Made by a program: the position numbers and the translations under genes. A stretch of 45,433 nucleotides of DNA, taken from Syntrophales bacterium. GTDB lineage: Bacteria; Desulfobacterota; Syntrophia; Syntrophales; UBA8958. The notes under the pieces were generated by a model. That model had not been told where the DNA came from. It did no database searches and saw only the letters and a program-made list of their open reading frames with translations. This document shows, in pieces, positions 15,043 through 43,662 of the stretch. The stretch is taken from assembly GCA_023231165.1 (NCBI GenBank), contig JALNVY010000002.1:1-45433 (forward strand). Direction: 5' to 3'. The first letter of the stretch is position 1. Every line of letters starts with the position of its first letter.

Positions 15043-15082
15043 GCTATGATTATCGAGAACATACAAGAGAAAGGTAAAGCTA

Positions 15083-15589: not shown

Positions 15590-15607
15590 TCAGCTTCTGA
15601 TCACTGG

Positions 15608-16896: not shown

Positions 16897-16911
16897 ATTC
16901 GTATTACGAAT
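16897..16911. promoter_or_regulatory. Candidate operator palindrome ATTCGTA-T-TACGAAT
   Basis: Perfect 7-1-7 inverted repeat in the 307-nt divergent region between the XRE gene and 17015-17569. Confidence 0.4.
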
Positions 16912-17014
16912 AAATAATGGAAAAAAGTTCATGACAACAAAGCAAAATACATGTATAGGAAGTTCAACGGATAAAATATTACGGTTAAAAAGTTAGAAAG
17001 GAGGTGAAACAAGA

Positions 17015-23561: not shown

Positions 23562-23597
23562 TCGATTCCTCCTGTGATCATATTACTTCCAAGGGCC

Positions 23598-23634
23598 AAA
23601 AAAAAACGCCCGGTTCGGAAACCAGGCGTTTTTT
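23598..23634. terminator. Bidirectional intrinsic terminator separating the vWA cluster from the tra block
   Basis: A9-CGCCCGGT-tcggaa-ACCAGGCG-T6 (one mismatch), 4 nt after the vWA gene stop. Confidence 0.65.
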
Positions 23635-23637
23635 AGT

Positions 23638-25554: not shown

Positions 25555-25572
25555 TTGCTCTCCTCCAAGAAA

Positions 25573-25594
25573 AACGCCCCCTTCCGGAGGCGTT
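25573..25594 (-). terminator. Intra-operon hairpin plus T-tract between the DUF3150-like and vWA genes
   Basis: Minus-sense AACGCC-u-CC-ggaa-GG-g-GGCGUU, followed by UUUUCUU and then directly the GGAGGAG SD of the vWA gene. Confidence 0.45.
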
Positions 25595-25607
25595 TCGGTA
25601 ATTGACG

Positions 25608-26594: not shown

Positions 26595-26657
26595 GTCGTG
26601 ATCTCCTTTTAGGTAATGTTCTAAGGACGGCCAGAATTTCGGCAACCCTTATTGTTG

Positions 26658-27113
26658 TTAGAACCACTCATCGGGTGAATCCTTTTCGGTGGAACCCTTT
26701 GATGGACTGTTCATCCAGGCATCGACCGCCTGTGCGATGGTCAGTCTGTTGACCCCTTTTTTAGAAGGTTCGGTTTGTATGGGAGGCTTGGGAGAAGGGG
26801 GAGGGGGAAGGGGTTGCTGCTGCCTTCCTGTCCTCAACGAGCTGGAGTTTGACCAACCGTTTTCCGGAATCCATTCCCGAACCACCTGATAGCCCTTTGC
26901 GATTTTCTTATTCACCATCTCAGCAAGGACTCTTTCGGGAAACGATCGTTTTAAATCAACCCTCTTACTCTGGTTGATCTGGGATATCTTTCCCCAGTGT
27001 ACATTTACGGTACTGAAAGTTCGGAATCCAACCCAGGCCTTGCCGCCGGAAACCGACGGCGCCTGAAGCCAGACACCATATTCACACCCGGGAGGGGGAG
27101 TTGGTGTTGACAT
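26658..27113 (-). CDS. WGR-domain-like protein with Pro-rich C-terminal part, ends in SPDEWF
   Basis: ATG 27113 with AAAGGGGG SD. VNVHWGKISQ...RSFPERVLAEMVNKKIAKGYQVV fits the WGR pattern (WGRiG ... KGY). Confidence 0.65.
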   Translation of the reverse strand: MSTPTPPPGCEYGVWLQAPSVSGGKAWVGFRTFSTVNVHWGKISQINQSKRVDLKRSFPERVLAEMVNKKIAKGYQVVREWIPENGWSNSSSLRTGRQQQPLPPPPSPKPPIQTEPSKKGVNRLTIAQAVDAWMNSPSKGSTEKDSPDEWF

Positions 27114-27128
27114 GTGAGCCACCCCCTT

Positions 27129-28055
27129 TCATCCATTTCCGAACACGCGTTGCACCAATTCGTGCAGGGCATTCCGTGATGTTTCCTCCGCACGAAATCC
27201 GATAGCCCGATCAAGGGCATAAACCAAAGGATCAATCCCCGGCTTTGCCTTGTAAAACCGTGCAAGATGCGCCCATCGAATAAGGGACCTGGTGCAGAAC
27301 ACCACCTCGATCTCGCCGCTGGTGTAGAGGTCCCGAACCATGCCCGAGACCTTAACCATATTATCGGCAATGATGGGAGGCATGTCGGGACATGCCTGCG
27401 ACAGCACCTGCTTTTCTTCCTCCGGTGTCGGATAGCCAACCTGCACCATCATGAAACGCCCCATGCTGGCGGCGTTCTGGCGCTTTGTTGCCTGATAAAT
27501 TCCGGTATCATCACCGTTTCCGGCGGTGTTGCCTGCGACGACTATACGGGTACCGTTCATGAGCGGGTCAAGCGTTTCTCCCGTTTCCGGGATCATGATT
27601 GATCGCCCCTCAAGTATCCCATTCAAGCCGGTGAATGTTCCGGGGTCGAGGGTGTCAATCTCGTCCAGAAGTATCCAGGCCCCTTCAGGGTCTTTCAGGC
27701 CGGCGACCAAAGGGCCGTCTGTCCACTCCATCTGACCGTTCTTAACAACGAAACGGCCAAATAATTCCGGGATTTCCATTCTTTCGTGACACGAAACCAC
27801 ATAGAGGGGAATTCCGAGGCGGGATGCTGTCTGCTCGATGATCGACGATTTACCTGATCCAGTTGGACCGGTCAGATAAAGGGGGTCGTTTCCTGCTGCT
27901 CCTTTTACCCAGGCGAGCATGTCGGACAGTAGCTCCCTGCGAAAGATATACTCCGGCTTCTGTCGGGGAATAAGGTTGTGCTGTGTATCCCGGACATCGA
28001 CGGTGACTGTGGCAGGTGCATTAATGCCAAACACTTCAGAAATAGATTTCTGCAT
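27129..28055 (-). CDS. AAA+ ATPase of the CobS/MoxR/CbbQ (AAA_5) type
   Basis: Start at MQKSISEVF (AAGGAGG SD). Walker A LTGPTGSGKSS, Walker B WILLDEIDTL, RIVVAGNT sensor region. 308 aa. Confidence 0.85.
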   Translation of the reverse strand: MQKSISEVFGINAPATVTVDVRDTQHNLIPRQKPEYIFRRELLSDMLAWVKGAAGNDPLYLTGPTGSGKSSIIEQTASRLGIPLYVVSCHERMEIPELFGRFVVKNGQMEWTDGPLVAGLKDPEGAWILLDEIDTLDPGTFTGLNGILEGRSIMIPETGETLDPLMNGTRIVVAGNTAGNGDDTGIYQATKRQNAASMGRFMMVQVGYPTPEEEKQVLSQACPDMPPIIADNMVKVSGMVRDLYTSGEIEVVFCTRSLIRWAHLARFYKAKPGIDPLVYALDRAIGFRAEETSRNALHELVQRVFGNG

Positions 28056-28111
28056 GATACTTTCCTCCTTAATAGGTAATTTATTGGATTTATTATTGTG
28101 GTTGGTGAGTT

Positions 28112-29140
28112 CTATTGCGCCCGCGCCGCCCTTGCGGGTTGGCGGGTAATGAGCTTGTGCATGTCTTTCACGCCCGCTTTTACGTGGTGATCGAGGGCGA
28201 TCACTCTGTCGCAATAGCGAGCCGAGATTTTCATTGCTATCTTCTGCGCTGCCCGGCCAGGTTCGTCATTGTCCAAAGCGAACAATATCTCGCGGGGCTT
28301 GAGCATCGAGAGGACATCTCCGATTTTTTCGGCGTTTCCAACCCCGTTCAACGAACACAGGGTGAGAGTGTCGTCGTTCAGGATGATTTCTGAGGCCAGG
28401 GCGTCCAGAATGGACTCCGCGACCATGATACGGGAAGACTGTCGGCGCAACACCCAGAGAGTCTTGTGACCAAGGGTCTTCCTGGCTGTGCCACCGATTT
28501 CCCGGCACTCCAAGCCCTTCAGGTTGTCGGCGTGGGTGATCGGTATTGCCACATAGCTCTTTTTTTCTTTGAAATGGGTGTACATGACACACGCCATTTC
28601 ATCGTAAAGCCTGACTCCCTGTTCTTCAAAATACCGCCTGATGGTAGCGCGGTCTCCTGATGTCATAAGGGTCATTCTTTCTTTGTGGAGATTCCGCACC
28701 CACTCCACCTTGTCGGAGTCGTGAGAATTGGATTTCTGCGGTGGAGGCATGTATGTCGTGTAGGATAAGCTGTTGTTCAATTTTCTCACGCCATCAAGAA
28801 AGCCGACACCGTAAAAAAGCTCTACGAACTTGATTGCATCCCCCGATTCACCTGACCCCCAATCCTTCCATGTCCAGCGGCCCTTATAATAAGACACGCT
28901 GAACGAAGGATTATTTTCTGCTCTCAGGGGCGACGAAAATATTGCCTTCTCGCTTACGTGCCAAGTTGCTTTGTAGCCGAGAGACTCTATCAGGGCGATG
29001 AGGTTCACCCGTCGGGCGGCCTCAATGTCCCTATCCGTAACACGATGTGACCGGCTGGATTGCCGGGTTGGAGGCTGTGTTATTCGTTTCCACAGCCTGG
29101 TAATAAGTCCCATCAATCCTCCGCTCCTTTCAGTAGTCAT
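28112..29140 (-). CDS. Toprim-domain primase-like protein with a degenerate (Cys-less) CHC2 finger
   Basis: Start at MTTERSGG (AAGGAGAAGGAGG SD). SPLRAENNPSFSV..WKDWGSGESGDAIKFV parallels DnaG CPFH.EKTPSF..CFGCG.GGD.I.F with all ligands replaced. C-terminal Toprim (VAESILDAL, FALDNDEPGRAA). Confidence 0.7.
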   Translation of the reverse strand: MTTERSGGLMGLITRLWKRITQPPTRQSSRSHRVTDRDIEAARRVNLIALIESLGYKATWHVSEKAIFSSPLRAENNPSFSVSYYKGRWTWKDWGSGESGDAIKFVELFYGVGFLDGVRKLNNSLSYTTYMPPPQKSNSHDSDKVEWVRNLHKERMTLMTSGDRATIRRYFEEQGVRLYDEMACVMYTHFKEKKSYVAIPITHADNLKGLECREIGGTARKTLGHKTLWVLRRQSSRIMVAESILDALASEIILNDDTLTLCSLNGVGNAEKIGDVLSMLKPREILFALDNDEPGRAAQKIAMKISARYCDRVIALDHHVKAGVKDMHKLITRQPARAARAQ

Positions 29141-29170
29141 TTTGTTGCCTCCTTCTCCTTTGATTTCATC

Positions 29171-29292
29171 GGTAATTGCGTCAGCCCTTCGCAGGACGTA
29201 AAAAAGCCGCACCTGTCCCGTTGTAAAGCGGTTCAGCCATGCGGCTATGTTCGTGACCTACTAAAAATACTAACTGTCTAAGTAATACTTCT
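29171..29292 (-). repeat. Leader element copy B upstream of the primase-like gene, in the divergent region with the T4CP-like gene
   Basis: About 85% identical to 11374-11494. Same order: AGAAGTATTA box, TAGTATTTT, 30-nt invariant block, hairpin plus U-tract, GNRA mini-hairpin. Confidence 0.7.
29199..29245 (-). terminator. Intrinsic-terminator-like hairpin plus U6 inside leader copy B
   Basis: Minus-sense GCCGCAU..(same internal structure)..GUGCGGC followed by UUUUUUA. Confidence 0.45.
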
Positions 29293-30976: not shown

Positions 30977-31714
30977 CTACTGTTTTGCTACAAAAGATCT
31001 TAAGTCATTCTTGATGTAGTATTTTGCGCCAACTTTCGTTAAAAGAGCTTCCACATCGTAAAGGAATTCGGTCCAGTTCACGGCTCGTTCGTATTCTTTC
31101 ATGTGGTTTAACTTGCCAACCTTCCAAAAAGCCACATAGGGATGGGCCATGTGAATCACCTCAAGGGCTTGAACGGGATCGATCACCGGTTCCAAGCTGA
31201 CCCATGTAAAGAGGCCTTCTTTGTGAGCGGCCTTCAAGACGGCCATCCGTTCATCAACGGTCGAAGCGCCCGGTTCCCAAATTTTGCGCGTGGCATCATC
31301 GGAAAAACACAGTGTAACGCCTAACTGCGTGCTAGCCTCCTTCATCAGCCCCAGGTCTTCCTGAATCAAGTCTGCACATCCTTTCGTCAACACCTGGCTG
31401 TTCAGCCGATGTCTTGCGATAATTCTCAACGCCCGATGTGTCAACCGTTCAACCCGTTCAAGCGGTTGATACGGATCGCTCGAGAAACAAAATAGTATTC
31501 GCCGCTTATCACCACGAAGCTTCTCAGCGTCTTTATCGAGATTCTTCAGCACATCCGGCCGCGGTTCTGCTTTTGCGTGCCACTTTTCTCCCGTTGTGCG
31601 CATGCACGACGGCGCATAGCAATAACGGCATCCGTGCGTACAGCCACGATAAAGATTGCAGGCTAATTCGGAGTACTCCCGTGCCCGTCCTTTTGGTTCA
31701 TAAACAACATTCAT
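30977..31714 (-). CDS. Radical SAM protein of the spore-photoproduct-lyase-like / DNA repair photolyase (COG1533) type
   Basis: Start at MNVVYEPKG (AAGGAG SD). CNLYRGCTHGCRYCYAP is CxxxCxxC in the NxYxGCxHxCxYCYA context of that family. 245 aa. Confidence 0.8.
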   Translation of the reverse strand: MNVVYEPKGRAREYSELACNLYRGCTHGCRYCYAPSCMRTTGEKWHAKAEPRPDVLKNLDKDAEKLRGDKRRILFCFSSDPYQPLERVERLTHRALRIIARHRLNSQVLTKGCADLIQEDLGLMKEASTQLGVTLCFSDDATRKIWEPGASTVDERMAVLKAAHKEGLFTWVSLEPVIDPVQALEVIHMAHPYVAFWKVGKLNHMKEYERAVNWTEFLYDVEALLTKVGAKYYIKNDLRSFVAKQ

Positions 31715-31725
31715 GGGGGAACTCC

Positions 31726-32805
31726 TTAAAAGTGTTTGATTGGTTCCGCATTCGGCTTTGTCCAAGCGCCATAGGAAATGCGAAAAACTTGATGAGGCAG
31801 CTTTTCTTCTTTAACCATTTTGTTCATCGCTGCCTTTGCATGGGATCCTAATACGCCGCACTGCAAGGAGAAGATGTATACCTCCTTGTTTGTCAGGATG
31901 CGGTGTTCCAAAACTTCTATCTCCAGATCTTTTTCGAATACAGTAATTTTTGTCGGCTTATCGTATTCAGAGAAAAGGGATGGCGCATTGGGATCAATGC
32001 CGTCATTATCGATATCAAAATTTGCATCACCGCCTTTTCTCCATGCGATGTGCAGGAACTTATCGATACCACGGGGATGATGGGAGCCAAAAACAAGACC
32101 ATAGACATTCGGACCTTTTTGAATGGAAAATGATCCGCGATAATAGGTATGACCTTCCGGTATCCAGCGGCGATAGGCATCTGCGACTATGCGATGCACA
32201 TTCTTTCCATTCATCGGCACAAAATCAGCATCCGTCACGGGGACATATTTACGGATTTCCTGAATATTTTTGAATCTATTGACCATGCCGGAGGAGATAA
32301 AAAAGATGACATCCGTCAGGGAAAGGCGTACGATGGTTTTAAAGATGTCCTCTGTGATTTGCTGCACGCCATTTTGGTCGAGGAACAGAAGATTGGCTGT
32401 TTTCCCGCGCATCAATGGTTCCCATTGTTCAAAGACTGAATGAAAATCACTTTGTTTAATGGTAAATTCGACCTGCGGTAAGGCAATTCTCTGTTCGTCG
32501 ATACATGAAGATAGATCCTGATATTTATCCGCAGCACATTCATTGAAATAGGCCCGGATTTTCTTTGTTCGATTGCCATGATGATTCAAGGCCTTGCGGA
32601 TCTCCTCGCATGTGATGAGGGGACTGCCCGGATTCCCTTCCGTATCGTTTCCAGGCCCGGCAAAAAAATCAAAAATCTGCAATGTCTCTACAGAAGGCAA
32701 ATTGATGAAGACCGGCAACCACTCACGCAGGTACTCCCGATAGAGATCCAGCTTGTCTTGTGTACCTTCGTCATAGGGCTTTTGATGAAGATCACGTCTG
32801 GGCAT
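31726..32805 (-). CDS. TcmP-like 'three-Cys-motif partner' protein (assignment from memory); Rossmann-like DFFAGPG motif
   Basis: 359 aa. N-terminal HQKPYDEGTQDKLDLYREYLREWL and IFDFFAGPGND. 11 nt upstream of the radical SAM gene. Confidence 0.6.
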   Translation of the reverse strand: MPRRDLHQKPYDEGTQDKLDLYREYLREWLPVFINLPSVETLQIFDFFAGPGNDTEGNPGSPLITCEEIRKALNHHGNRTKKIRAYFNECAADKYQDLSSCIDEQRIALPQVEFTIKQSDFHSVFEQWEPLMRGKTANLLFLDQNGVQQITEDIFKTIVRLSLTDVIFFISSGMVNRFKNIQEIRKYVPVTDADFVPMNGKNVHRIVADAYRRWIPEGHTYYRGSFSIQKGPNVYGLVFGSHHPRGIDKFLHIAWRKGGDANFDIDNDGIDPNAPSLFSEYDKPTKITVFEKDLEIEVLEHRILTNKEVYIFSLQCGVLGSHAKAAMNKMVKEEKLPHQVFRISYGAWTKPNAEPIKHF

Positions 32806-32890
32806 GTCTGCCGTCCTTTCTATTATTGGCGTTCCATTCGTTCATATGCAGCGATCCCAAAACAATTGTCCCCGATGTGTGGGACCATAT

Positions 32891-35800
32891 TTATTGATCT
32901 ATTCTCTCCTCCTCAGCGCCGTTCTTGCCCAGGCCCATGCGGTATTTGATGTCGTAATTGATGATGAAGTCCAACTCCTCGTGGGTAAAGCCGTAATGTT
33001 CGGCCAGGAGCTTGTCGATCTCGTCGATGATGGGTTTGGATTTCATCGCATTGAGTTCATCATATTCAATGACATGTCCCTCTTTTGTGACGATTTTCTT
33101 TCTATTACTATTTGTCCTCAAGTCGTAAGACAACCTTTCTTCGAGGTCTTTCCATTCAGTATTGCCTATACTATCAGGAATAGGGAACCATTTTACAAAG
33201 CTATCATTAACATGTTCACAATCGGCAAGCGAACTATAGAAAAGATAAAATAGGGATGAATTTAATAGATTGACTGCGAATGATTTTTTGTCTTCATTTC
33301 GAAAAGATATGGTCCTGCCGTGTGCAGGAGCTATTTCTTGATCATTTTTCTTGAAATAAGGGTAACCAGAACAGGCCTTAATCCAATATCTGCATGCTTC
33401 CTGGTAATAAACGAGCGCGGTTGAATACTTTGAAATATGGTCTGAAAGAGAAATGCTATTCTTGAGAACATTTCTAAAGATCATCAACGCTGTGTTATTA
33501 CCAATTTTTGCAATTCTATGCTTATTCACATGAACATTATGTTCACATATTTGAACGCAATCTATGGCATGGGTTCTTTCTTGAGTATAAAATCGGCAAA
33601 TTCTGGAACTAAATATTCCAGATTTGATGGTTGGGATAGACAAAATAATTGCAACAGGCATTTCTACACCATCAAACATAGATTCTGGACGTCGCGGGAA
33701 TGACGCGACAATAACTGAACTTCGCTTGATCAGCATATCCTGCAACGAAGCCATATTCTCGGATGTTATAGATGTCAATTGAACGATGAGGCTGACATTT
33801 GCAGAATTCGTTGCTATTTGGAAAGATCGGTCAAAAACATAAGCAAAAAGGTTTTTGCTATCGAAAGTCTTATAATTATTAGCGATTAATTTGTAGCCAT
33901 GTTTAGCTTCGGAATATACTACGTATGGTGGATTTCCGATAATCACATCAAACCCGCCGTGGCCGTGAACAATCTCGTAAAATTCGGCAAACCAGTGGAA
34001 GGGCCGGTGGGTGGTCCTCCAGTCTGAAAACTTTACTTTGGCGTAATGCTGTTTGTGCAGGAGCACATCCAGGGCATGGGTTAGCTTTTCCAACCGTGCG
34101 TTCAGGTTGTCTTTGGCGGTTCTGAAATCCCCATAGACCGTGCTTCCGGTAAGTTGGATCTCCTTGTATCGCGTAAAGGCCCGCGCCACGATACCACACT
34201 TCTCTTCAATTTTCTCGACGTCATCGTCGAAATCCAGCATACTCGACTTATTGCCGAAAAACGCCTCTTTGATCTGGGCTTCCGTCGCATACCCGATCAG
34301 CGTGTTCCCGACGCGAATATTGAAATCCACATCGGGCAATGGTTCCAGTCCCAGATTGGGTTTGCGGTAGTCAGCGTCGACTGTGGCCGCAAGCTTGAGG
34401 AAGAGGCGCAGCTTGGCGATTTCCACGGCCTCGTTCATAATGTCCACGCCGTAGAGGTTGTTCAGAATGATGGATTTGTAGATAAAGTAGGCCTGATTGG
34501 GGTGCTGTTCATTCTGGACTTGTGCCAGGGTTTCCCGGAAGAACTTGTATTTATGGCCGAAGGTCTTTTTCTCGACCGCATTGGCCCGGTCCTCGTCCTC
34601 CACATAGGCCCGCATCCGGAGTAGACAGGTCTCGTAAAGGGGTTCCAGAATGTTCATCGCCGCAAAGAGAAAGGCCCCCGATCCACAGGTCGGATCGAGG
34701 ATGGTCGCCTTGCAGAGGGCCTTGTAGAAGTGACGGATAAAGTCGGGGTCGGCGATGTTTTCCAGGAGGTCTTGGGCAAACTGGCGGATGTTCAGGTTAC
34801 AGGTGATGAAGTCGTTGATGTTTGTTATGTCGCCGTCGGTGATTTTCCGGCTAAGATCGGCGCACCGTTTGCGGCGCTCGATAAGCTCGCGATAGATCTC
34901 TGTAGGGAGCCCGATGTCCGAAGGGGCCGATTTGTTCCAATCCTTACGCAGATCGCATAGGTAAGGACCCGTGCCGTCCACGACCCGCTCTGCTAATTCA
35001 GGGTCAAAACCTTTCTTTATTTCCGGGGGTAGATCGTCAAACAATTTCTCTGTGTCGGGGACGCCTTTCTTGACAGCGTCATAGATGTAGTCGTTGCCGC
35101 TTTCCCGAACCATGCTCCAGACCGGCCCGTCGGCCTTGAAGCCGATTGGATGGCTGCGCTTCGTTTCATCGAAGAGAAAGGGGATGATGCAGTTCCTGCC
35201 GATATAGTCGGTGATGTCTTCTTTGGTGTAGTAGGCCCCCATCTGGGAGCGATCGTTGATGTATTTCTCAAAGATATAACCGATGACATCGGGATTGACG
35301 TCCTTTCCGGAAGATTCGGCGCGGGTGTCCAGATACCAATTGAACTCGTCGAAAAAGGCAAAAAGACGCTCAAAGGCCGTGTCGTCGATGTCAAGATCCC
35401 GGTTCAGTTTTTCAAGCTCGTGTTCGTCGAAGAGGCCGCCGTTCAGGTAAGGTACATTGCCGATTTCCACGGTCAGTTCCTTGCTATGCGCAGGCGAACC
35501 AAGGCCCTGGTGAAAGAGGACGAGCAAGAAGGCGCGGTAGAAGGAGTAGAATTTACCCTTTCCTTTTTGTTCCCCGCAGGCCTTGAGCTTGTCCTGAAGG
35601 TAGTTGCGGTTGTTGTCCAGAAAACCTTTCTTCTGGATGAAGTAGCAAAACATGAGGCGGTTGAGCATGAGCGAGGCGTACCATTCCCGGTCGCCCTGGG
35701 CTTGTATCCCCTTGATGAATCCGAGAAACGCGGTGTGCTCCTTCTTGAAGCCCTCGTAGAATTTTTTTGTGACCTTTTCGTTATTCTGTTGGAAATTCTT

Positions 35801-36262
35801 AGCTACGCGGCCCGTCACATCCACAATGGTGATCCTGTCTTCCTCGTCTAAGGTAAAAAACAGGCCGCTTGCCCGCTGATAGAGAAGCTCCGGGCTCTGT
35901 TCTTTCTTGTAGCGGGTTTCCGTGACTTTGGTGGGTTTTCCCGTCTGACGGACGGCCAACTGCCAGACCTGTTCGGTTTGGGCCGTATCGATGTAGATAA
36001 TCAGATGTTCCTGAAATAGTTTGGTCACACTTTGTTCGACCTTCTTGCGCATAGCGTAATCGGGAATCCTGCCTTGCGCATCCGGCTCGCACAAAAGAAT
36101 TTTAAAGCCGCTTTTTTCCACGACCGATTCGAGTACGAATGTGGATTCGTCCACGGCGATGGGTTGTTTGATCCGGTCGTTGTTCCAGCCCATGTCGATG
36201 AAGAGCTCTTTGAATCTGAAGGCTTTGATGTAGGCACTGAAAGCATCTTTGGAAAGGTTCAT
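32891..36262 (-). CDS. Large gamma-class N6-adenine DNA methyltransferase (Eco57I/type IIG-like architecture)
   Basis: 1123 aa. Motif I ILDPTCGSGAFLF, motif IV VIIGNPPYV. The long C-terminal specificity-like region ends HEELDFIINYDIKYRMG. Start overlaps the helicase stop (ATGA). Confidence 0.9.
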   Translation of the reverse strand: MNLSKDAFSAYIKAFRFKELFIDMGWNNDRIKQPIAVDESTFVLESVVEKSGFKILLCEPDAQGRIPDYAMRKKVEQSVTKLFQEHLIIYIDTAQTEQVWQLAVRQTGKPTKVTETRYKKEQSPELLYQRASGLFFTLDEEDRITIVDVTGRVAKNFQQNNEKVTKKFYEGFKKEHTAFLGFIKGIQAQGDREWYASLMLNRLMFCYFIQKKGFLDNNRNYLQDKLKACGEQKGKGKFYSFYRAFLLVLFHQGLGSPAHSKELTVEIGNVPYLNGGLFDEHELEKLNRDLDIDDTAFERLFAFFDEFNWYLDTRAESSGKDVNPDVIGYIFEKYINDRSQMGAYYTKEDITDYIGRNCIIPFLFDETKRSHPIGFKADGPVWSMVRESGNDYIYDAVKKGVPDTEKLFDDLPPEIKKGFDPELAERVVDGTGPYLCDLRKDWNKSAPSDIGLPTEIYRELIERRKRCADLSRKITDGDITNINDFITCNLNIRQFAQDLLENIADPDFIRHFYKALCKATILDPTCGSGAFLFAAMNILEPLYETCLLRMRAYVEDEDRANAVEKKTFGHKYKFFRETLAQVQNEQHPNQAYFIYKSIILNNLYGVDIMNEAVEIAKLRLFLKLAATVDADYRKPNLGLEPLPDVDFNIRVGNTLIGYATEAQIKEAFFGNKSSMLDFDDDVEKIEEKCGIVARAFTRYKEIQLTGSTVYGDFRTAKDNLNARLEKLTHALDVLLHKQHYAKVKFSDWRTTHRPFHWFAEFYEIVHGHGGFDVIIGNPPYVVYSEAKHGYKLIANNYKTFDSKNLFAYVFDRSFQIATNSANVSLIVQLTSITSENMASLQDMLIKRSSVIVASFPRRPESMFDGVEMPVAIILSIPTIKSGIFSSRICRFYTQERTHAIDCVQICEHNVHVNKHRIAKIGNNTALMIFRNVLKNSISLSDHISKYSTALVYYQEACRYWIKACSGYPYFKKNDQEIAPAHGRTISFRNEDKKSFAVNLLNSSLFYLFYSSLADCEHVNDSFVKWFPIPDSIGNTEWKDLEERLSYDLRTNSNRKKIVTKEGHVIEYDELNAMKSKPIIDEIDKLLAEHYGFTHEELDFIINYDIKYRMGLGKNGAEEERIDQ

Positions 36263-39200
36263 TCGGCATGCTCCGTTTTGAGGCCAAGCGAGCAGATGAT
36301 CTGAGGATCGCGGATTTCCGGCTCATCGTCGCTGGTAATGCAAAGCTTGGCTTCTTCTCTCAAGGATGTCACTAGTTCCGCCAGTTGCTCGTCCGAAACA
36401 CCGGCCTTAAGTTGGCGGCTCAAGGTGTCGCGGGCGAATTCTTTGAGGGGGTATTTATAGATGTCATCTACGGCCCGTTTGAGGGGCTCCGTCATAAACA
36501 ATGTGCCGTCGTATTCCTTGCAAAATCGGTCCAGACGCATGTACACGCGATATTTGACCCCTGTTTTCTTCCCCAGCGTTCCGCCTTGATTCTTCTCTTC
36601 TTCCCGAATTAACGCCATGCTCGACTTGACGATATCATGATGATTTTCCAGCCGTTCAACGGGCGGTGTATGGGTATGGCATTCCGCAACTTTCAGGATA
36701 GCCAGTTGGGATTGGGTAATCAACTGCCCTTTGGCATCCATCCAGGTCAACACGTCATTGTCTTCTACAGTACGGGTATAGACGATCACGCCGTCTTTGC
36801 CGGGAAAAGCGGTAGTGGCCTTTGTGGAATAGACGACATTCGGCATGTCGGGAATCAGTTTGGTGAGCGCCGGGTTTGCATCCGTGGCGTTTTTCCAGAT
36901 CTGATAGGCATAGGAGGCCAGGTCCACTTCATTGTCGTCATCCTCGTCCAGAATGCCCGACTTCTCACTGTAAAGATCGTGGATGCTTACAGGATCGCCG
37001 TCAAAGAACACCTCATCGGAACCGACCACCTCGGCGTTTTCCGTGATCCGGCGCTGGAGTCTGCCGCGAAGCCGGATAATCCGCTCAATGCCGTCGGCGG
37101 GCAGGAATGAATAGCAGAGAATTTCCTGAGACTTCTGACCGATACGATCCACACGACCCGCTCTCTGGATCAAACGGATGATCGCCCAAGGCAGGTCGAA
37201 GTTGACGACGATATGGCCGTCCTGCAAATTCTGCCCCTCGCTGAGGACATCAGTGGTAATTAGAACGCGCAGATCTTGACCTGTTCGGGTGATTTCATGT
37301 TTTTCATTGCTTTCAGGGCTGAACCGATGGGCGAGTGCGGTCGGGTTGTCATTGTCGCCGGTGACGCATTCGATCTTCGTTACACCCATTGCCTTCATGT
37401 GGATGGTCAGATATTCCGCCGTGTCTGCATATTGGGTGAAGACGAGCACCTTTTCGTCCCGGTGCTTCTCTTCAAGGAGTCGATGAAGGGATAGTAACTT
37501 CTGATCTTTTGCCGGGTCCCATGGACCGGCCATTTTCAGGATCTTGATGATTTCCCAACCGTCGCTAATCAGTTCTTTCATTAGGTCCTTGGCAAACAGG
37601 GCGGAACGAATCCACTCAAATCGGTTCTTATGCGCCCCTGCGAATAGTTCGTAGACTTCCTTACCCTTTTTCAGATATGCGCTTTCATCCATGAGAACCT
37701 GAAAACCGGGATCGTCGTCGTCCGTATCCTGATCTTCCAGAAAGTCATCCAGATTATCTATGATGTTCTTCCCGATCGGTAGAGGGAGATTGTTCTCGAT
37801 GGCATGGATGAAGACAAAATTCCGAAGAACATGCCGTGCCAGGGACAACTGGAAGGCGAAACCGGAGCTCTCTAGGCGTTTGAAGAGGTTTGTACGGCAA
37901 AACCCCATGAGCCGCTTGCCCGCCCGTGAAAGGTTGGCGATGATTCTTTCTTCTTCAGCGCTTGTCTTGTCTACCGGCTTGGGGTCCAGGTAATTGGCAA
38001 GGCCATATCTGGGCAGATCGAGATGGTTAATCCGGTTCACCACACCATCGGAATAGAGCCGGGCGTATTGGTCATTGGTGTCTTTCTCGTCGAAGGCAAA
38101 CACCACCTTTCTGGGGATGCGGTCCGGAAAATAGGAACGCTTGCCGTTTTTGAAGGTGAGAAACCGCCGCCCTGTTTCGGAGTCCAGTGAAGAATAGTGT
38201 GTGCGAACAAAACTTCTCGTTCTCCGGACCAGATACAGGCGCATCAATTCACGCCAGTCATCGGCATGATTGCTTTTTTCAAAGGCCTTGACACTGCGGA
38301 TGAATGTTTCCGTGTGTCTGGCGAGGAATTGAACCTGCCCCCCGATGGTGTTGATGTAATGCTCGGGAGAAATCCCAAGGTCTTTGTCGTCGGAAAGGAA
38401 CAAGCGTAGCTGGTTGGAAAGATCGGTGTATGACTTGTTGTATGGTGTTGCCGAAAGTAAAACCACCTTGCTTTCATTCTCCTCAAGGTAGTTTTTTATC
38501 GCCCGATAACGGCTTCCCTGATCATTTCTGAGGTTGTGGCTTTCGTCGATGACGACCAACCGGTAGCGCCGCAGGTTGGGCAGGGTGGACTGAACCATGC
38601 TCTGGGAAATAACCTTGGCGCGCAGTTGGTACTTGTGGGCGTAACCTTCCCACATATCCTTCAGGTTCTTAGGGCAGATGATTAAGGTCTCGAAATAGAA
38701 ATCTTCTTCACAAAGTTTGGCAATGGCGGTTGCGATGATGGTTTTGCCCAAACCGACCACATCACCGATCATCACCCCATCTCGTTTATTCAAGTGATGA
38801 ACCGCGACGAGTACCGCTTTTTTCTGAAAATCCAGAAGTTCGTCCTGGAATATTTTCGGCAGTTTGAATTCGCTAATGCCAGCTCTGGCCTCTTGTGACA
38901 AGTGATAAGCCATTTTCAGGTAGATATGATAGGGTGAAACCGGCTTTTCCGCAGCCCAGCTTGTATCGATGATTTCAATCAGTTCCTGGGTTATATCGAG
39001 ACACCAGCGGTCATTCCAGCGGTCATCAAACCATCTTGCCAGTTTATTTGCTGCATCTTGTTCCAGCACATCGACATTCAATTCTCCCTGTTTAGAAAGC
39101 CCAGCAAGGGTGAGGTTACTGCTGCCGACAAACCCGACTACGGGAACGCGGGCATCTTCACTATAAGCAAGGTATAGTTTGGCATGCAACGGATGTCTTG

Positions 39201-39621
39201 AATGGAGTTTGACAACCGTCTTTCCTTCACTCATCTGCTTGCTGAGATGTCGAAGCGCGGCTTCATCCGCGCTGGAAGGTATGCCGATTGTCAATTGTTC
39301 TCGAAAATCACGGGCGAGCTTCTTTTTGATCTTCACGACTTCAGATTGGTCGATAGTGTCCGATTTGATATCGCGATATTGTTCCCTCACACTTTCAACG
39401 GGATTTTTCTGCATGCCCACCAGAAGTCGGCAGTACCGTTGCACTTGATCCTTGCTTTCAACAATCCAGTCACCTGGGAGACACTCGATTTCAGTATGGA
39501 TTTCTTTCCACCCACGCAGATTAAAGTAACCAACACAAAAGTCGGCCCGTGAGGAGAGTTTTAAGGTTTCTTTTAAACCATCGGTCAGCACTTTGGTTAT
39601 ATTATCATAGATCGTCGGCAC
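36259..39621 (-). CDS. PLD-family nuclease domain fused to an SNF2-type helicase
   Basis: 1120 aa. GTG start with AGGAGAG SD. N-terminal HAKLYL..GFVGSSNLT (HxK..GSxN). Helicase motifs GDVVGLGKT, VVIDESHNLRN, LLSATPYN, TDVLSEGQNLQ, LIQRAGRVDRIGQ. Confidence 0.9.
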   Translation of the reverse strand: MPTIYDNITKVLTDGLKETLKLSSRADFCVGYFNLRGWKEIHTEIECLPGDWIVESKDQVQRYCRLLVGMQKNPVESVREQYRDIKSDTIDQSEVVKIKKKLARDFREQLTIGIPSSADEAALRHLSKQMSEGKTVVKLHSRHPLHAKLYLAYSEDARVPVVGFVGSSNLTLAGLSKQGELNVDVLEQDAANKLARWFDDRWNDRWCLDITQELIEIIDTSWAAEKPVSPYHIYLKMAYHLSQEARAGISEFKLPKIFQDELLDFQKKAVLVAVHHLNKRDGVMIGDVVGLGKTIIATAIAKLCEEDFYFETLIICPKNLKDMWEGYAHKYQLRAKVISQSMVQSTLPNLRRYRLVVIDESHNLRNDQGSRYRAIKNYLEENESKVVLLSATPYNKSYTDLSNQLRLFLSDDKDLGISPEHYINTIGGQVQFLARHTETFIRSVKAFEKSNHADDWRELMRLYLVRRTRSFVRTHYSSLDSETGRRFLTFKNGKRSYFPDRIPRKVVFAFDEKDTNDQYARLYSDGVVNRINHLDLPRYGLANYLDPKPVDKTSAEEERIIANLSRAGKRLMGFCRTNLFKRLESSGFAFQLSLARHVLRNFVFIHAIENNLPLPIGKNIIDNLDDFLEDQDTDDDDPGFQVLMDESAYLKKGKEVYELFAGAHKNRFEWIRSALFAKDLMKELISDGWEIIKILKMAGPWDPAKDQKLLSLHRLLEEKHRDEKVLVFTQYADTAEYLTIHMKAMGVTKIECVTGDNDNPTALAHRFSPESNEKHEITRTGQDLRVLITTDVLSEGQNLQDGHIVVNFDLPWAIIRLIQRAGRVDRIGQKSQEILCYSFLPADGIERIIRLRGRLQRRITENAEVVGSDEVFFDGDPVSIHDLYSEKSGILDEDDDNEVDLASYAYQIWKNATDANPALTKLIPDMPNVVYSTKATTAFPGKDGVIVYTRTVEDNDVLTWMDAKGQLITQSQLAILKVAECHTHTPPVERLENHHDIVKSSMALIREEEKNQGGTLGKKTGVKYRVYMRLDRFCKEYDGTLFMTEPLKRAVDDIYKYPLKEFARDTLSRQLKAGVSDEQLAELVTSLREEAKLCITSDDEPEIRDPQIICSLGLKTEHAE

Positions 39622-39990
39622 TTTATTACTCTCCTGTCTGCATTTTGGTTTTCATAAAGGTGTATTCAATACTTTACATAGCATAATTAATGGGAAAATA
39701 ATATTGGTGATTATGTAATGGACTACGGTATGATACTCGCTATTGATAAGTTGTAATTTAGGAAGAACAGCCGGATTCTGGATGAGCGCATAATGGTTGC
39801 CAAAGCATCGCATGTTTCGGTCCGTATTCATTCAACATAATGTAATGAAGATCCGATGTAAGCATTAGGCATTTTAAGCGATTGGCTGCAATTCATAAAA
39901 AATGAGCTGCACAACTTCGCATTCTTGACACACTCATCTAAAAATATATATCCGCAAAACTTTCTATTGTGCGAGGAGAAGAAAAACAAG

Positions 39991-41037
39991 TCAACGTTTA
40001 AATGGCTTGGCCTTGTTAAATTTTGGAATGATCAGCGCATAGGTGTCACCCCAGTAATTTTTTGCTTTGACGGAGATTTTTTGTTTCGTTAAAATGTCCC
40101 CACTGCTGGTCTCCCACCAAGACAAATCTTCCATAGCGTCGGCAGACTCAGCTTTGCCGCTGTGAACGGTATAAATTACCGAATGCTCAGGTACACGCAT
40201 ATTTTCATGAATTAAGATACCCTGCTCCTTTGCTGCCTCGTTCGGAGTGACTTTTATGGCACGTAAAACTGGAATCGGAAGCGTACTGAAATCAAAGCTA
40301 TGTTGAGCCGCTAGTTGTCTGCTTTCTGATTTCTTTAGCCCCTTTTTACACAGTACCAACAAACATGGTTCCGGCCATGCTTTAACAATGCCGATGAGAG
40401 AGGCCAAATTACTCGCCTCTGGACACAGAGTTTGCCTCAGGGTTTCGATTTGTTCAAAGGAAATTTCTCCCTTGATGAGCGGCTTTACAAAAGGATTATA
40501 GAATCCGAATTTTCCGGCAATGAGATCGATTACGACTTCCTCGGGGTCTTTATTAGAAAGATGCACGGTTCTCATAAAACATAAGCGTGACTGATCCGTG
40601 AGAATAAGTAGGTGAGCCACCTCATGCCATTTTGTAAAATATGCCCTTGCAGCATTACTCCCCCTGCAATCAATTATGGAAACAAATTCAGGTTCCCAAG
40701 GTTCTCTCTTTGATCTGCGGTATGTTATACCTAGCACTTCATCAGAAAATTCATGATCGATGGTTGCGAATATCTTTTCCCCCTGCTTTAAATATTTTGC
40801 TTTAATGGCAGCAAGATCGTCGTCGCTGTGAATTTCCTCGAAAGATGTATCAAGCTTACCGGCTACCCAGCATAGAAAATCAGACAACGAAGGGCAGTCA
40901 ATAGCTTCCTTCAGAAATTTCTTGATTCGTTTTTCACAAAAGTTCAGGATATCTGAGACAGGATTATTACTTGATCTGATACCTAAATCTTTGGCTAATC
41001 TCCAAATTTTTGTTGACTGATTTAATCTCGTGGCCAC
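39991..41037 (-). CDS. ImmA/IrrE-family (DUF955) zinc metallopeptidase with extra N- and C-terminal domains (CapP-like)
   Basis: 348 aa. The GTG start directly follows the XRE stop (TAAGTG). YFTKWHEVAHLLI is the HExxH motif. Confidence 0.75.
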   Translation of the reverse strand: MATRLNQSTKIWRLAKDLGIRSSNNPVSDILNFCEKRIKKFLKEAIDCPSLSDFLCWVAGKLDTSFEEIHSDDDLAAIKAKYLKQGEKIFATIDHEFSDEVLGITYRRSKREPWEPEFVSIIDCRGSNAARAYFTKWHEVAHLLILTDQSRLCFMRTVHLSNKDPEEVVIDLIAGKFGFYNPFVKPLIKGEISFEQIETLRQTLCPEASNLASLIGIVKAWPEPCLLVLCKKGLKKSESRQLAAQHSFDFSTLPIPVLRAIKVTPNEAAKEQGILIHENMRVPEHSVIYTVHSGKAESADAMEDLSWWETSSGDILTKQKISVKAKNYWGDTYALIIPKFNKAKPFKR

Positions 41038-41442
41038 TTATTTAAATGCCTCCTTTATGGCTTCATGGAATTTTTTCCAACCATCAACCGTCAACTCCTT
41101 GCGATATTTCGTGCCCCTTCTGGCAACGACTGAGTTGAACGTACTTAACAGATCGAGCGTAGCGCTATAGCTAAGCCCCAATTCTTCTGCCGCCTCGGAT
41201 AATTCCTGGGGAATGATAATTTGATCAGTTTTTGCGTTCTCCGTAACTCTTCCCGCGAGTAAATAATCAACAGAAGCCCCTAACTCATTGGCGAGTCTCA
41301 ATATGCCCTGTGAGCCAATGTTCGTTTTATCATTCTCGACATCACTTAAAAAACCTTTGCTCATCCCAGCCTTCTTGGCGAGTTCTTCCTGAGTCAGGTT
41401 TCTTTTTTCTCTAATTTCCCGGATTCTCTTACCTGTGGTCAA
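41038..41442 (-). CDS. XRE-family HTH repressor (CapH/ImmR-like)
   Basis: TTG start at 41442 with GGAGGAG SD 7 nt upstream. GKRIREIREKRNLTQEELAKKAGMSKGFLSDVENDKTNIGSQGILRLANELGASVDYLL. The upstream 72 codons of the track ORF run through the promoter region. Confidence 0.8.
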   Translation of the reverse strand: MTTGKRIREIREKRNLTQEELAKKAGMSKGFLSDVENDKTNIGSQGILRLANELGASVDYLLAGRVTENAKTDQIIIPQELSEAAEELGLSYSATLDLLSTFNSVVARRGTKYRKELTVDGWKKFHEAIKEAFK

Positions 41443-41504
41443 TTTTTCTCTCCTCCAACCATGTAGCGTGTTAGTTCTGTATACAAGAACATGGTAACGA
41501 AATG

Positions 41505-41548
41505 CAAGAAATATATTTCTTGACAGATCAAAAATAGTTCGATATACA
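41505..41548. promoter_or_regulatory. 18-bp perfect palindromic operator overlapping divergent promoters
   Basis: CAAGAAATATATTTCTTG (41505-41522). Plus-strand TTGACA (41520-41525)-17 nt-TATACA (41543-41548). Minus-strand TTGCAT-18-TATACA starts at the other palindrome edge. Confidence 0.55.
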
Positions 41549-41597
41549 GTATCAAACATCGCGTATAGCGAAATAATAAAGACGGAGGAAATTTTAC

Positions 41598-41780
41598 ATG
41601 GCAAAAAACGCTCCTTACGGAGACGGCCACAGGCACGGTCAGGTAACAGACCGTTCACAGACGTATAACCCCAAGAATGATCGCTGGACCAAAAGGGACA
41701 CAGATACTGGAAGGTTTATCGATCAGAAAGCTGATGAAAATCCATTTAAAGGTGTCCGAAAAGAAAAACAGGAGGAATAA
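41598..41780 (+). CDS. Small basic hypothetical protein, first gene of the Ubl operon
   Basis: 60 aa with GGAGGAA SD. Sequence ..NPKNDRWTKRDTDTGRFIDQK... Confidence 0.5.
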   Translation: MAKNAPYGDGHRHGQVTDRSQTYNPKNDRWTKRDTDTGRFIDQKADENPFKGVRKEKQEE

Positions 41781-41785: not shown

Positions 41786-42067
41786 ATGAAAGAAGCACAT
41801 GAAAACCATCATGAAAACCAGGGCCATATTAAAAAGTACACCATTATCGTAAATGGCCGTGAGAAAACGGTGACTAAGAAAGAATTGTCATTTGCTGAGA
41901 TTGTCGCTTTGGCTTTTGAAAATCCTCCGACGGGTGAGAATATCATTTTCACCATCACATACAGGCGGGGTGAGGGCAATAAGCCCGAAGGAACCATAAT
42001 CGATGGGGAAACAGTTAAGATAAAAGAGGGAATGATCTTCAATGTCACAGCAACTGATAAATCGTAG
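41786..42067 (+). CDS. Ubiquitin-like beta-grasp protein of the 'multiubiquitin' type (single domain)
   Basis: 93 aa with AGGAGGAA SD. YTIIVNGREKTVTKKELSFAEIVALAF...IIFTITYRRG...IIDGETVKIKEGMIFNV. The C-terminus is ...TATDKS, with no Gly-Gly. Confidence 0.7.
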   Translation: MKEAHENHHENQGHIKKYTIIVNGREKTVTKKELSFAEIVALAFENPPTGENIIFTITYRRGEGNKPEGTIIDGETVKIKEGMIFNVTATDKS

Positions 42068-43238
42068 TAATGATTTAAAGCGTCTTCGAGATGAGGGTTA
42101 CGACGTAGTGGTTAAGGTTAACCACCTGCTGGTCAAGAATGTGCCGTATGTAAATTCCAATAAGGAGATCAAGTTTGGAGTTCTCGTTTCGGACTTGAGT
42201 TTGGCGGGTGATGTGACAATAACTCCCCGCAATCATGTTGCCTATTTCGCCGGAGAGCACCCCTGTAACAGGGATGGCTCAGAGTTGGCGAAAATCAAGC
42301 ATCAGAGCCAGCGACAGGAGCTTGATCGTGATCTTGTCATTGACCATTCATTTTCGAGCAAACCTGTTACGGGTGCTTACAAGGACTATCATGACAAGAT
42401 GACCACTTACGTAGCCATCATTTCTAGCCCCGCTCAGTCGATTGACCCCAGCGTCACAGCAATAACTTTTCCAGTTATTGAATCTGACCGAGAAGAATCT
42501 GTGTTTAAATATATCGATACGGCATCAAGTAGAGCTGAGATCAATGTTGTGACCAGGAAGTTAGAAGGCGGGGCGATCGGCATTGTGGGCCTGGGTGGTA
42601 CAGGCTCCTATGTGCTAGACTTGGTGGCCAAAACTCCCGTGAGAGAAATCCGCCTCTTTGACGGAGATAAATTTTCTCAACACAATGCGTTTAGATCGCC
42701 GGGCGCTCCATCGATTGAGGAGCTGAAGAAAGAAACCAAGAAGGTGGTCTACTTCCAGGACATCTATTCAAAAATGCATCGAAATATCATTGTCAATGGC
42801 GACTACATAGAGGCAGCGAACGTCAATCAATTAGAGGGACTAGATTTTGTATTCCTTTGCCTGGACAGCGGCGAGCCGAAAGGACTTATTGTAGAGAAAA
42901 TGGAAGCTCTTGGCATACCCTTCATTGATGTCGGCATGGGTGTGGAGCTCGTCGATAACGCCCTGCTCGGAATTCTCAGGGTCACGACCAGCACAGACGG
43001 AAAACGTGGTCACGTGAAGCAAAGGGCCTCTTTCTCTGATGGCGGAGACAACAAGGAATATTCCCGAAACATTCAGATTGCAGATCTTAACGCTCTGAAT
43101 GCGGCCTTGGCTGTCATCAAGTGGAAAAAGCTATGCGGGTTTTACAAAGATCTCGAAAATGAGCATCACTGTACGTATACTATAGATGGCAATATTCTGA
43201 CCAATGAGGAGCAATGTGAAGCGCAAAATATCGCTTAA
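42042..43238 (+). CDS. E2-like N-terminal domain fused to a ThiF/E1-type adenylyltransferase
   Basis: 398 aa. E1 Rossmann motif IGIVGLGGTGSYVLDLVAKTPVREIRLFDGDKFSQHNAFR. N-terminal ~150 aa carries an EHPCNRDG loop. 26-nt overlap with the Ubl gene. Confidence 0.8.
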   Translation: MSQQLINRSNDLKRLRDEGYDVVVKVNHLLVKNVPYVNSNKEIKFGVLVSDLSLAGDVTITPRNHVAYFAGEHPCNRDGSELAKIKHQSQRQELDRDLVIDHSFSSKPVTGAYKDYHDKMTTYVAIISSPAQSIDPSVTAITFPVIESDREESVFKYIDTASSRAEINVVTRKLEGGAIGIVGLGGTGSYVLDLVAKTPVREIRLFDGDKFSQHNAFRSPGAPSIEELKKETKKVVYFQDIYSKMHRNIIVNGDYIEAANVNQLEGLDFVFLCLDSGEPKGLIVEKMEALGIPFIDVGMGVELVDNALLGILRVTTSTDGKRGHVKQRASFSDGGDNKEYSRNIQIADLNALNAALAVIKWKKLCGFYKDLENEHHCTYTIDGNILTNEEQCEAQNIA

Positions 43239-43662
43239 ACATGAATTTGTCGAATATATTCCCGATAAACTGAAGGACGGGACTGTTTACGTGTCGATAG
43301 CTTTCTCAACGGTGGTGCACAAATGCTGCTGTGGATGTGGGAACGAGGTTATCACCCCGCTTTCTCCAACTGATTGGAAGCTAATCTTCGACGGCCAGTC
43401 TATTTCTCTCTATCCGTCTATTGGAAACTGGAATTTCGCGTGCCGGTCCCACTACTGGATTGAATGCAATATTGTCAAGTGGGCTCCGCAATGGTCACAA
43501 GAGAAGATTAAAGCCGGCAGAACCAATGATGCTTTCGTCAAAGAAAAATACTTCGGCGGAACCATTGGCAAGATCGTTCATGAAAAGATTGCTGATGCAC
43601 GGATAACAAAAGGCAAACCGAAAGAGAGCTTTTGGCAGACCATCAAGAAATGGTTGTCTTAA
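43204..43662 (+). CDS. Cys/His-rich small protein (DUF6527-like from memory), putative zinc-binding partner
   Basis: 152 aa. HKCCCGCGNEVITPLSP...NFACRSHYWIE. 35-nt overlap with the E1 gene. Confidence 0.65.
   Translation: MRSNVKRKISLKHEFVEYIPDKLKDGTVYVSIAFSTVVHKCCCGCGNEVITPLSPTDWKLIFDGQSISLYPSIGNWNFACRSHYWIECNIVKWAPQWSQEKIKAGRTNDAFVKEKYFGGTIGKIVHEKIADARITKGKPKESFWQTIKKWLS

Follow-up and report, generated by a model that had tools for sequence, protein, structure and literature searches.

Do the four co-directional genes at 30977-39621 of this stretch of DNA make up one defence system, or do two units of separate origin meet there? The window, by which we mean the whole 45,433-nt stretch analysed, comes from contig JALNVY010000002.1 of a Syntrophales bacterium; all positions below are those of the window, and L-numbers designate homologous loci recovered from contig scans. 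The original prediction, made from the sequence alone, saw in the following genes one restriction-modification (RM)-like cassette, in which a nuclease-helicase and a methyltransferase are extended by TcmP and a radical S-adenosylmethionine (SAM) enzyme:

36259-39621, minus strand: PLD/HKD nuclease domain (~aa 100-205) fused to an SNF2/SF2 translocase; 1120 aa, GTG start; predicted restriction subunit of module A
32891-36262, minus strand: Eco57I/MmeI/PglX-like gamma-class N6-adenine DNA methyltransferase with a hypervariable target-recognition domain; 1123 aa
31726-32805, minus strand: TcmP (three-Cys-motif partner protein); 359 aa
30977-31714, minus strand: minimal canonical radical SAM enzyme; 245 aa counted from the ATG

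We find that the four-gene unit is a recurrent, facultative composite, neither an obligate four-gene system nor DISARM. Our reading, which we regard as probable though not secure, is that two separable two-gene modules lie side by side: an ATP-dependent RM system (module A, the first two genes) and an autonomous, mobile TcmP/radical SAM pair (module B) lodged in an accessory slot.

The gene structure itself is as first described, the coordinates, listed motifs, ATGA overlap and gaps all being borne out. These open reading frames (ORFs) are real genes and not chance ones, because profile matches are strong and each protein has full-length homologues by the hundred or the thousand: TcmP has 881, the radical SAM protein 3016 and the helicase at least 8000, these last of ~1120 aa and from many phyla. 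The mechanical ORF of the radical SAM gene extends to 31765 (TTG); its homologues are 245 aa long. The helicase stop and methyltransferase start share the ATGA at 36259-36262, an overlap that, as far as gene layout can tell, shows the two to be translationally coupled. An 85-nt gap separates the methyltransferase from TcmP. Only 11 nt then precede the radical SAM ATG at 31714, with AAGGAG upstream, and TcmP and the radical SAM gene are a second pair with predicted translational coupling.

To place these genes among their relatives we used two samples. On the helicase side, 80 loci with helicases of 55-75% identity were drawn from metagenome contigs and then searched by tblastn with all four window proteins; on the TcmP side, a TcmP-profile scan of genome contigs gave 79 loci. 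A methyltransferase homologue lay co-directionally downstream of the helicase in 75 of the 80 loci (adjacent to it in 74), while in the remaining five it was either convergent (two) or cut off by a contig end (three). Judged by this gene order, module A is a self-contained and widespread two-gene unit of RM-like kind, which supports the earlier RM-like reading of these two genes. The claim that all four genes form one conserved unit fared otherwise: a TcmP/radical SAM pair followed in just one (L088) of the 44 helicase-methyltransferase loci that were assessable, that is, had at least 1 kb of sequence beyond the methyltransferase, and most TcmP/radical SAM pairs lie in contexts other than HKD-SNF2 plus methyltransferase. 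Synteny, which the original prediction had proposed as a check, is thus largely lacking, and this counts against obligate membership of the pair. Nevertheless all four genes are found again in the same order in L174 (truncated; the closest relative), L005, L060 (frameshifted) and L088.

What follows the methyltransferase in related loci is highly variable. In 30 loci a co-directional gene lies within 200 nt of its end, and these genes represent at least 23 unrelated families, including YhcG/DUF1016 nucleases, Schlafen AlbA_2 proteins, deaminases, Bro-N, DUF3644 and Nmad2, as well as (five times) a small DprA-like protein. Even the close relatives of the window helicase differ in this slot: that with 82% identity is followed by YhcG and a DprA-like gene, that with 78% by Nmad2, and that with 75% by an unknown 336-aa gene. 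The small DprA-like gene (DNA_processg_A, ~155-210 aa) occupies any of three positions, directly behind the methyltransferase, behind YhcG, or behind the TcmP/radical SAM pair (L090, L092, L094, L132, L146, L174 3169-3672, L175 16822-17304, L170 8906-9373), and by its distribution appears to be another mobile accessory of these operons.

The two modules also have discordant nearest relatives, as pairwise identities show:

TcmP of the window: nearest L001 (75%); other four-gene loci 63-68%
TcmP of L005: nearest L006 (81%); other four-gene loci 63-70%
TcmP of L088: nearest L014 (83%); other four-gene loci 68-70%
Helicase of the window: nearest L086/L087 (75%); other four-gene loci 54-70%
Helicase of L005: nearest L152 (68%); other four-gene loci 54%
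Helicase of L088: nearest L089 (86%); other four-gene loci 54-70%

None of these nearest relatives of one module carries the other. Moreover, the methyltransferase-TcmP junction sequences are not homologous among the four-gene loci, and the region 5' of TcmP in L005 matches that of L006, where there is no methyltransferase. Taken together, the discordant relatives, the non-homologous junctions and the upstream sequence shared by L005 and L006 argue that the juxtaposition arose at least three times. A candidate shared methyltransferase-TcmP junction was considered and rejected, the common 'GGAAC' being the ribosome-binding region 5' of TcmP in all contexts.

Both parts of the large first protein were recognized as predicted, with Pfam matches to PLDc_2 (31 bits vs a cut-off of 27), RE_NgoFVII (28.6 vs 23.8), SNF2-rel_dom and Helicase_C. 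It carries a single HKD motif (HPLHAKLY...VGSSNLT) of the HxK...GSxN form that defines the HKD/PLD superfamily, followed by both RecA lobes of an SNF2/SF2 motor with motifs I, II and VI intact (GDVVGLGKT, VIDESHNLRN, QRAGRVDRIGQ), and the PADLOC model PDLC01075 'HKD+Snf2' matches it in part (8e-60, residues 4-866 of 1120). The methyltransferase, originally assigned from its GNPPY motif, is indeed of the gamma-class N6-adenine type (Pfam Eco57I, 1.6e-25, and MmeI_Mtase; motif I LDPTCGSGAFL, motif IV GNPPY), and PADLOC REase_MTase_IIG (PDLC03628) matches it over its full length (6e-280, 930 bits). Among 39 orthologues its N-terminus (aa 1-190) contains no conserved acidic nuclease residue, the invariant positions there being L, F, G, W, P, R, H and Y, and no Pfam match to MmeI_N was found in the protein. 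Since the methyltransferase N-terminus thus shows no active nuclease, the nuclease of module A would be the single HKD domain on the SNF2 motor. In the same orthologues aa ~800-1080 are hypervariable, and G+C content falls to 0.379 at 33001-34000, compared with ~0.50-0.54 across the rest of the methyltransferase and helicase genes; this coincidence is the signature of a swappable specificity domain, and the dip in composition over the target-recognition domain suggests a module that was recently swapped. A sequence search of the PDB with the methyltransferase returned nothing meaningful and no solved structure, and a limited literature search found no functional study of an HKD-SNF2 plus methyltransferase two-gene unit.

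Turning to module B, TcmP scored 129.4 bits against NCBIfam TIGR04474 (cut-off 53) with its partner gene 11 nt downstream, confirming the original assignment, and 375 bits (1e-112) against PADLOC PDC-M30A. Its invariant residues (D46-F48-G50-P51-G52 within DFFAGPG; N88-E89; D143-Q144-G146) include the SAM-binding motifs DxFxGPG and NE, and in its AlphaFold2 (AF2) model (pLDDT 83) a class I SAM-methyltransferase Rossmann fold leads into a C-terminal region of helices. The Pfam match to GMT-wHTH at aa 271-336 is below threshold (24.8 bits vs 27), for which reason we regard a C-terminal winged helix-turn-helix (wHTH) as likely rather than established. Residues 258-271 (31993-32034) form an invariant acidic loop, GGDANFDIDxDGID (DxDxDG-like), which is modelled at low confidence and may be a metal-binding or partner-contact site. 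TcmP proteins fall into 2827 clusters at 50% identity, and when fusions were sought as Rosetta-stone hints, the best 150 representatives were all of single-domain length (~360 aa).

The last of the four proteins belongs to the radical SAM superfamily, as expected (Pfam Radical_SAM PF04055, 47.2 bits vs a cut-off of 29.5). Its cluster motif CNLYRGCTHGCRYCYAP is a canonical CX3CX2C (CTHGCRYC), set in a partial TIM barrel whose predicted fold matches those of SuiB, spore photoproduct lyase (SPL), PFL-AE and others; the AF2 model (pLDDT 83) is a minimal barrel with best TM-scores of 0.64 to SPL and 0.59 to SuiB. It also has a sub-threshold match to Pfam DUF5131 (27.3 bits vs 28.9) and partial NCBIfam matches to PA0069 and Rv2578c. 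The earlier 'SPL-like' label thus holds at the level of the clade, the SPL/DUF5131 neighbourhood, SPL and DUF5131 falling within one megacluster at RadicalSAM.org (PMC9477430), and fails as family membership, identity to SPL being 12% with no sequence-level PDB match. PDB sequence searches with TcmP and with the radical SAM protein (the latter also by profile) gave nothing meaningful, and in the literature on TcmP, DUF5131, PF22560 and PDC-M30 we found no functional study.

On the TcmP side, 28-29 loci have a TcmP at least 42% identical to that of the window and enough sequence beyond it, and in every one of them the next gene, 8-32 nt away, is a radical SAM homologue; these homologues are 57-82% identical and more conserved than TcmP itself. 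One count of TcmP genes with the radical SAM gene 8-32 nt behind them gives 22 loci, and in about 30 the two form a tight unit. TcmPs of 41% identity or less pair with a canonical DUF5131 protein (CX7CX2C), in either gene order, and DUF5131 is the upstream neighbour of TcmP in 19 of the 50 loci that have no radical SAM match. One locus, L021, is an exception to this split, with a TcmP of 49% identity and no radical SAM match. In one context the TcmP/radical SAM pair stands alone between tctA and trpA, and upstream sequence travels with the pair, that of L005 resembling L006 and that of L001 resembling L084. From these comparisons, TcmP and its radical SAM partner appear to be a tight, autonomous and horizontally mobile unit.

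If the pair is not a fixed part of module A, what company does it keep? A gamma-class methyltransferase lies directly upstream of TcmP, co-directional and at 4-287 nt, in L005, L018, L022, L032, L055 and L065, and of the 12 gamma-class methyltransferase genes in the 79 TcmP loci, seven lie no more than 1 kb away and a single one more than 5 kb. The RM architectures involved are diverse. Some pairs sit after a Type I hsdR-hsdM-hsdS operon, others ahead of a Type III mod-res pair or a lone N6_N4 methyltransferase; in further arrangements Mrr is followed one gene later by the pair, or the pair stands ahead of a complete MmeI-family enzyme. In L049 and L065, a distant HKD-SNF2 protein (~25% identity) and an Eco57I-like methyltransferase are followed by TcmP and a canonical DUF5131, with genes that abut or overlap. 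DUF5131 aside, every family that more than three of the neighbour proteins match is an RM family, and no C5-cytosine methyltransferase family is among the top TcmP-neighbour families. As judged from gene neighbourhoods, then, the position of TcmP pairs directly behind N6-adenine methyltransferase genes of several RM architectures is not random. A softer version of the original claim therefore stands: TcmP pairs are recurrently operonic with the N6-adenine methyltransferase genes of RM systems, and a functional link is plausible.

Several of these loci have features of their own. The tight operons of L049 (1090-11853) and L065 (3021-11954) include one from Leptospira ainazelensis, and L049 adds an SMC_N/mad3-like ATPase. 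In L166 (7001-10798) and L167, TcmP and the radical SAM gene are followed by a 614-aa N6_N4 methyltransferase, the whole inserted among solute-binding-protein genes, with no recognizable nuclease, and these loci are a possible minimal context for asking whether the pair supplies an effector function. L084, a conjugative contig on which the pair adjoins a Type III RM system, also encodes a 6227-aa multi-domain protein (LPD1, N6_Mtase, helicase, RadC) at 15076-16925, which runs off the locus.

Neither module is without precedent. HKD-SNF2 proteins have been described as the effector of Type-2 BREX-related systems (PMC10853773, PMC12839542). Like the known HKD-SNF2 systems, module A has an N-terminal single HKD/PLD domain and an SNF2 motor beside a large N6-adenine methyltransferase of the gamma class whose specificity domain is variable; unlike them, it consists of two genes and is without a separate S subunit, DUF499, a CxC-ABC or DndE partner, or an SRA reader. 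With the Hma-like, Type-2 BREX-related systems (Rakesh & Krishnan 2026, PMC12839542) it shares an HKD-Swi2/Snf2 helicase effector and a PglX-like N6 methyltransferase, whereas the HmaA model matches only the C-lobe of the helicase; neither a DUF499 AAA+ ATPase nor DUF3780 was found at the window locus, to which this search was confined, the 80 related loci not being included. The PLD, SNF2 and Eco57I-like methyltransferase domains resemble DrmC, DrmD and DrmMI of class 1 DISARM, but PLD and SNF2 are fused in module A, and the helicase scores 132.5 bits against the DrmD equivalog NF038317, far from its cut-off of 610. The DISARM core, noted as missing from the outset, is indeed absent: no DUF1998 (DrmB) or DrmA-type gene occurs within 10 kb, where the flanking genes encode an XRE helix-turn-helix (HTH) protein, an ImmA-like protein, a T4 coupling protein and a primase. 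In its core, its helical spacer and its swappable target-recognition domain, the methyltransferase is like BREX PglX and the MmeI-family Type IIL/IIG enzymes, with motif I (xDPxCGSG), motif IV (NPPY) and the C-terminal target-recognition domain of the latter all present. Even so, its BREX_1_MTaseX (PglX) score of 68 bits is far below the cut-off of 500, neither PglZ nor BrxC is encoded nearby at the window locus, and in contrast to the MmeI-like Type IIG/IIL enzymes there is no active N-terminal PD-(D/E)XK nuclease domain.

For module B, the closest described entity is the PADLOC candidate PDC-M30 (TcmP plus DUF5131), with which it shares the strong TcmP component, the tight two-gene layout, a partner from the radical SAM superfamily and defence-island contexts. 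The partner differs, being a CX3CX2C radical SAM enzyme in the window as opposed to the CX7CX2C of DUF5131. Because PDC-M30B scores the window radical SAM protein at just 16 bits (1e-3), compared with 384 bits (5e-116) for the true DUF5131 of L049, and gives nothing with a close homologue, we regard the window pair as a partner-swapped variant of this candidate. Resemblance to SPL comprises the shared megacluster mentioned above and the best structural TM-score (0.63-0.64), while the two differ in length (245 aa vs 340 aa) and share 9-12% identity; the radical SAM protein has no PDB sequence match even by profile, and its NCBIfam matches are partial and to other COG1533-type families.

How might the two modules act? 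On the evidence of these domains and motifs, module A would be an ATP-dependent RM system of a Type I/III/ISP-like kind. Its methyltransferase would read a site through the variable target-recognition domain and methylate adenine in host DNA. Unmarked sites would license ATP-driven translocation by the SNF2 motor, and the HKD domain that it carries would cut the unmethylated DNA. A single HKD motif would have to dimerize to make one active site, which would probably happen when two motors meet. In module B, TcmP and the radical SAM protein may form a complex in which TcmP binds SAM, and DNA by way of its likely wHTH, and presents a nucleic-acid substrate on which the SPL/DUF5131-clade enzyme carries out radical chemistry. 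The pair would then constitute an optional second layer beside N6-adenine RM, either an extra mark or a backup effector, in the slot that related operons fill with YhcG nucleases, DprA-like, Schlafen/AlbA_2 proteins, deaminases or Nmad2. Gene structure, domain identities, intact motifs, modularity and the recurrent association are shown by the sequences; the activities of all four proteins, and a role in defence, are proposals.

Several observations weigh against this interpretation. Our case that the juxtapositions arose independently is built on pairwise identities, not a full phylogeny. The hairpin 3' of the methyltransferase (described below) is weak, and read-through co-transcription of the TcmP pair with module A is possible. 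The top Foldseek matches of TcmP, all SAM methyltransferases or aminopropyltransferases (E ~1e-6), are weak (TM-score ~0.35) and generic. As well, the position of its catalytic motif IV reads LDQNG and not (D/N)PPY, so that TcmP is not predicted to methylate the amino group of a base. Finally, in L172, L011, L031, L012 and L029 the pair lies among housekeeping genes with no RM gene nearby; an RM partner is therefore not required, and the defence role is guilt by association only.

One alternative is that the mobile pair serves some purpose other than defence, for example tRNA/rRNA modification or DNA repair of the SPL kind. It would then accumulate in variable regions, and would lie beside RM genes only because insertion hotspots are shared. 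Pairs do occur between tctA and the trp operon, beside gyrB, and beside GGDEF or molybdopterin enzymes, and TcmP neighbours overall are heterogeneous (115 Pfam families among 77 proteins, including those of trp, gyrB and molybdoenzyme genes). The structural neighbours of TcmP include the tRNA methyltransferases Trm5a and TYW4, and the best TM-score of the radical SAM protein is to a repair enzyme, SPL. Neutral hitch-hiking nevertheless seems unlikely to us, given co-directional adjacency to N6-adenine methyltransferases at 4-90 nt in at least eight loci of varied RM architecture with a steep decay over distance, the arrival of the pair at one and the same position of a single operon family on at least three independent occasions, and the fact that neighbours recurring in more than two loci nearly all belong to RM or defence families. 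In S. meliloti, too, a TcmP gene adjoins the Hna defence gene (PMC12445080).

A second alternative is that the pair modifies the DNA of a conjugative element or its host and so evades the restriction or other nucleases of recipients, making it anti-restriction cargo and not defence. The window and L084 are both conjugative elements, two SAM-using enzymes with a likely DNA-binding wHTH would suit a DNA-modifying pair, and both kinds of partner, radical SAM and DUF5131, have homologues in phages (PHROGs 13321 and 2045, the radical SAM protein of the window matching the former at 1e-24). However, TcmP has no phage family in PHROGs, and many pairs are chromosomal without mobility genes nearby, which makes this account quite improbable. 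Least credible of all is a single integrated system in which TcmP and the radical SAM protein are obligate, for example installing or removing a second mark read by the nuclease or repairing self-inflicted damage: co-direction, short gaps, the order recurring in L174, L005, L060 and L088, and the distant versions L049 and L065 (TcmP abutting the preceding gene at 0-3 nt) would all fit it, yet a pair in one of 44 loci, unrelated genes in the slot of the closest helicase relatives, the lack of HKD-SNF2 near most TcmP pairs, discordant relatives and non-homologous junctions leave it very little room.

Two separable modules, then, is the reading with which we turn to the surroundings of the four genes. 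Three further features belong here:

32868-32885, minus strand: weak terminator-like hairpin (GTCCCACACATCGGGGAC, then AATTGTTTTG) within the methyltransferase-TcmP gap, from a consensus scan
39622-39990, minus strand: AT-rich 369-nt intergenic region 5' of the helicase gene, with GGAG 8 nt ahead of the GTG
17976-29212 (minus strand) and 2177-8144: conjugation and maintenance backbone (TraG_N, TraH, TraF, primase, CbbQ-type AAA, DUF3150, CobT/VWA, topoisomerase III, IS3-family transposase, ParM-like actin)

Because the regional count of such sites is not above shuffled expectation, the hairpin (32885-32868) is at most suggestive of a transcriptional boundary. The intergenic region, with promoter-like hexamers at 39803-39775 and 39757-39730 that are consensus matches only, is the likely promoter and ribosome-binding region of module A.

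The backbone, which also includes a T4 coupling protein and unites CbbQ, DUF3150 and CobT-VWA as a set, identifies the window as part of a conjugative element, and both modules sit in its cargo part. An identical sequence is present on a 72-kb Joint Genome Institute (JGI) contig, and the nearest relatives occur in metagenome-assembled genomes of Syntrophales and of Smithella type. When the cassette was compared with PLSDB by megablast, the only match was a 34-nt one due to chance; a search for flanking repeats that would mark insertion of the pair or the cassette found only short chance matches, and a tRNA scan of the window found none. The four genes are flanked by a convergent coupling-protein gene and an XRE/ImmA-like pair (39991-41658, minus strand), in which an XRE-type HTH gene (41038-41658) comes first and then one for a 348-aa ImmA/IrrE-like protein with a WHEVAHLL metallopeptidase motif. 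Such a pair is a typical mobile-element regulator, and we rejected these genes as parts of the system since they are not conserved alongside the helicase in other loci.

Other possible cargo lies further out. An operon at 41786-43662 (plus strand) encodes Multiubiquitin (93 aa), a DUF6791 plus ThiF E1-like protein (398 aa) and DUF6527 (152 aa); it resembles a bacterial ubiquitin-like conjugation cassette, with weak PADLOC 'E1-E2' matches. The 307-aa protein at 43749-44672 (minus strand) has a weak Mrr_cat match (1.7e-4) and none in PADLOC, and may be further restriction-like cargo. At 244-1836 (plus strand), a 530-aa protein joins a caspase-like Peptidase_C14 domain to Lcl_C (PADLOC 'caspase', 8e-12) and may be a defence-associated protease.

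What does the locus mean, then? Module A is a kind of RM-like system already known, and module B is a variant of an already flagged, uncharacterized candidate pair. These results correct a tempting over-reading, the locus being neither a new four-gene system nor a DISARM derivative, and they define a very widespread two-gene family, HKD-SNF2 plus methyltransferase, with a variable accessory slot behind the methyltransferase. It is possible, though doubtful enough that we offer it as a tentative suggestion, that TcmP pairs, whether the partner is a radical SAM or a DUF5131 protein, represent a new type of module that uses radical chemistry alongside N6-adenine RM, either adding a second, non-methyl DNA mark or serving as a backup effector, one that damages or marks DNA once the methyltransferase-nuclease layer has been bypassed. 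If true, this would explain the repeated independent capture of such pairs directly downstream of Type I, Type III, Type IIG/ISP-like and HKD-SNF2 methyltransferase genes. The locus sharpens the question of what TcmP and its DUF5131 or radical SAM partner do, and it is this biochemistry, with the affinity of the pair for N6-adenine RM operons, that merits experiments: the partner swap within one TcmP clade, together with repeated landing behind N6-adenine methyltransferases, gives a concrete place to start on what may be a layer of DNA modification or immunity based on radical SAM enzymes.

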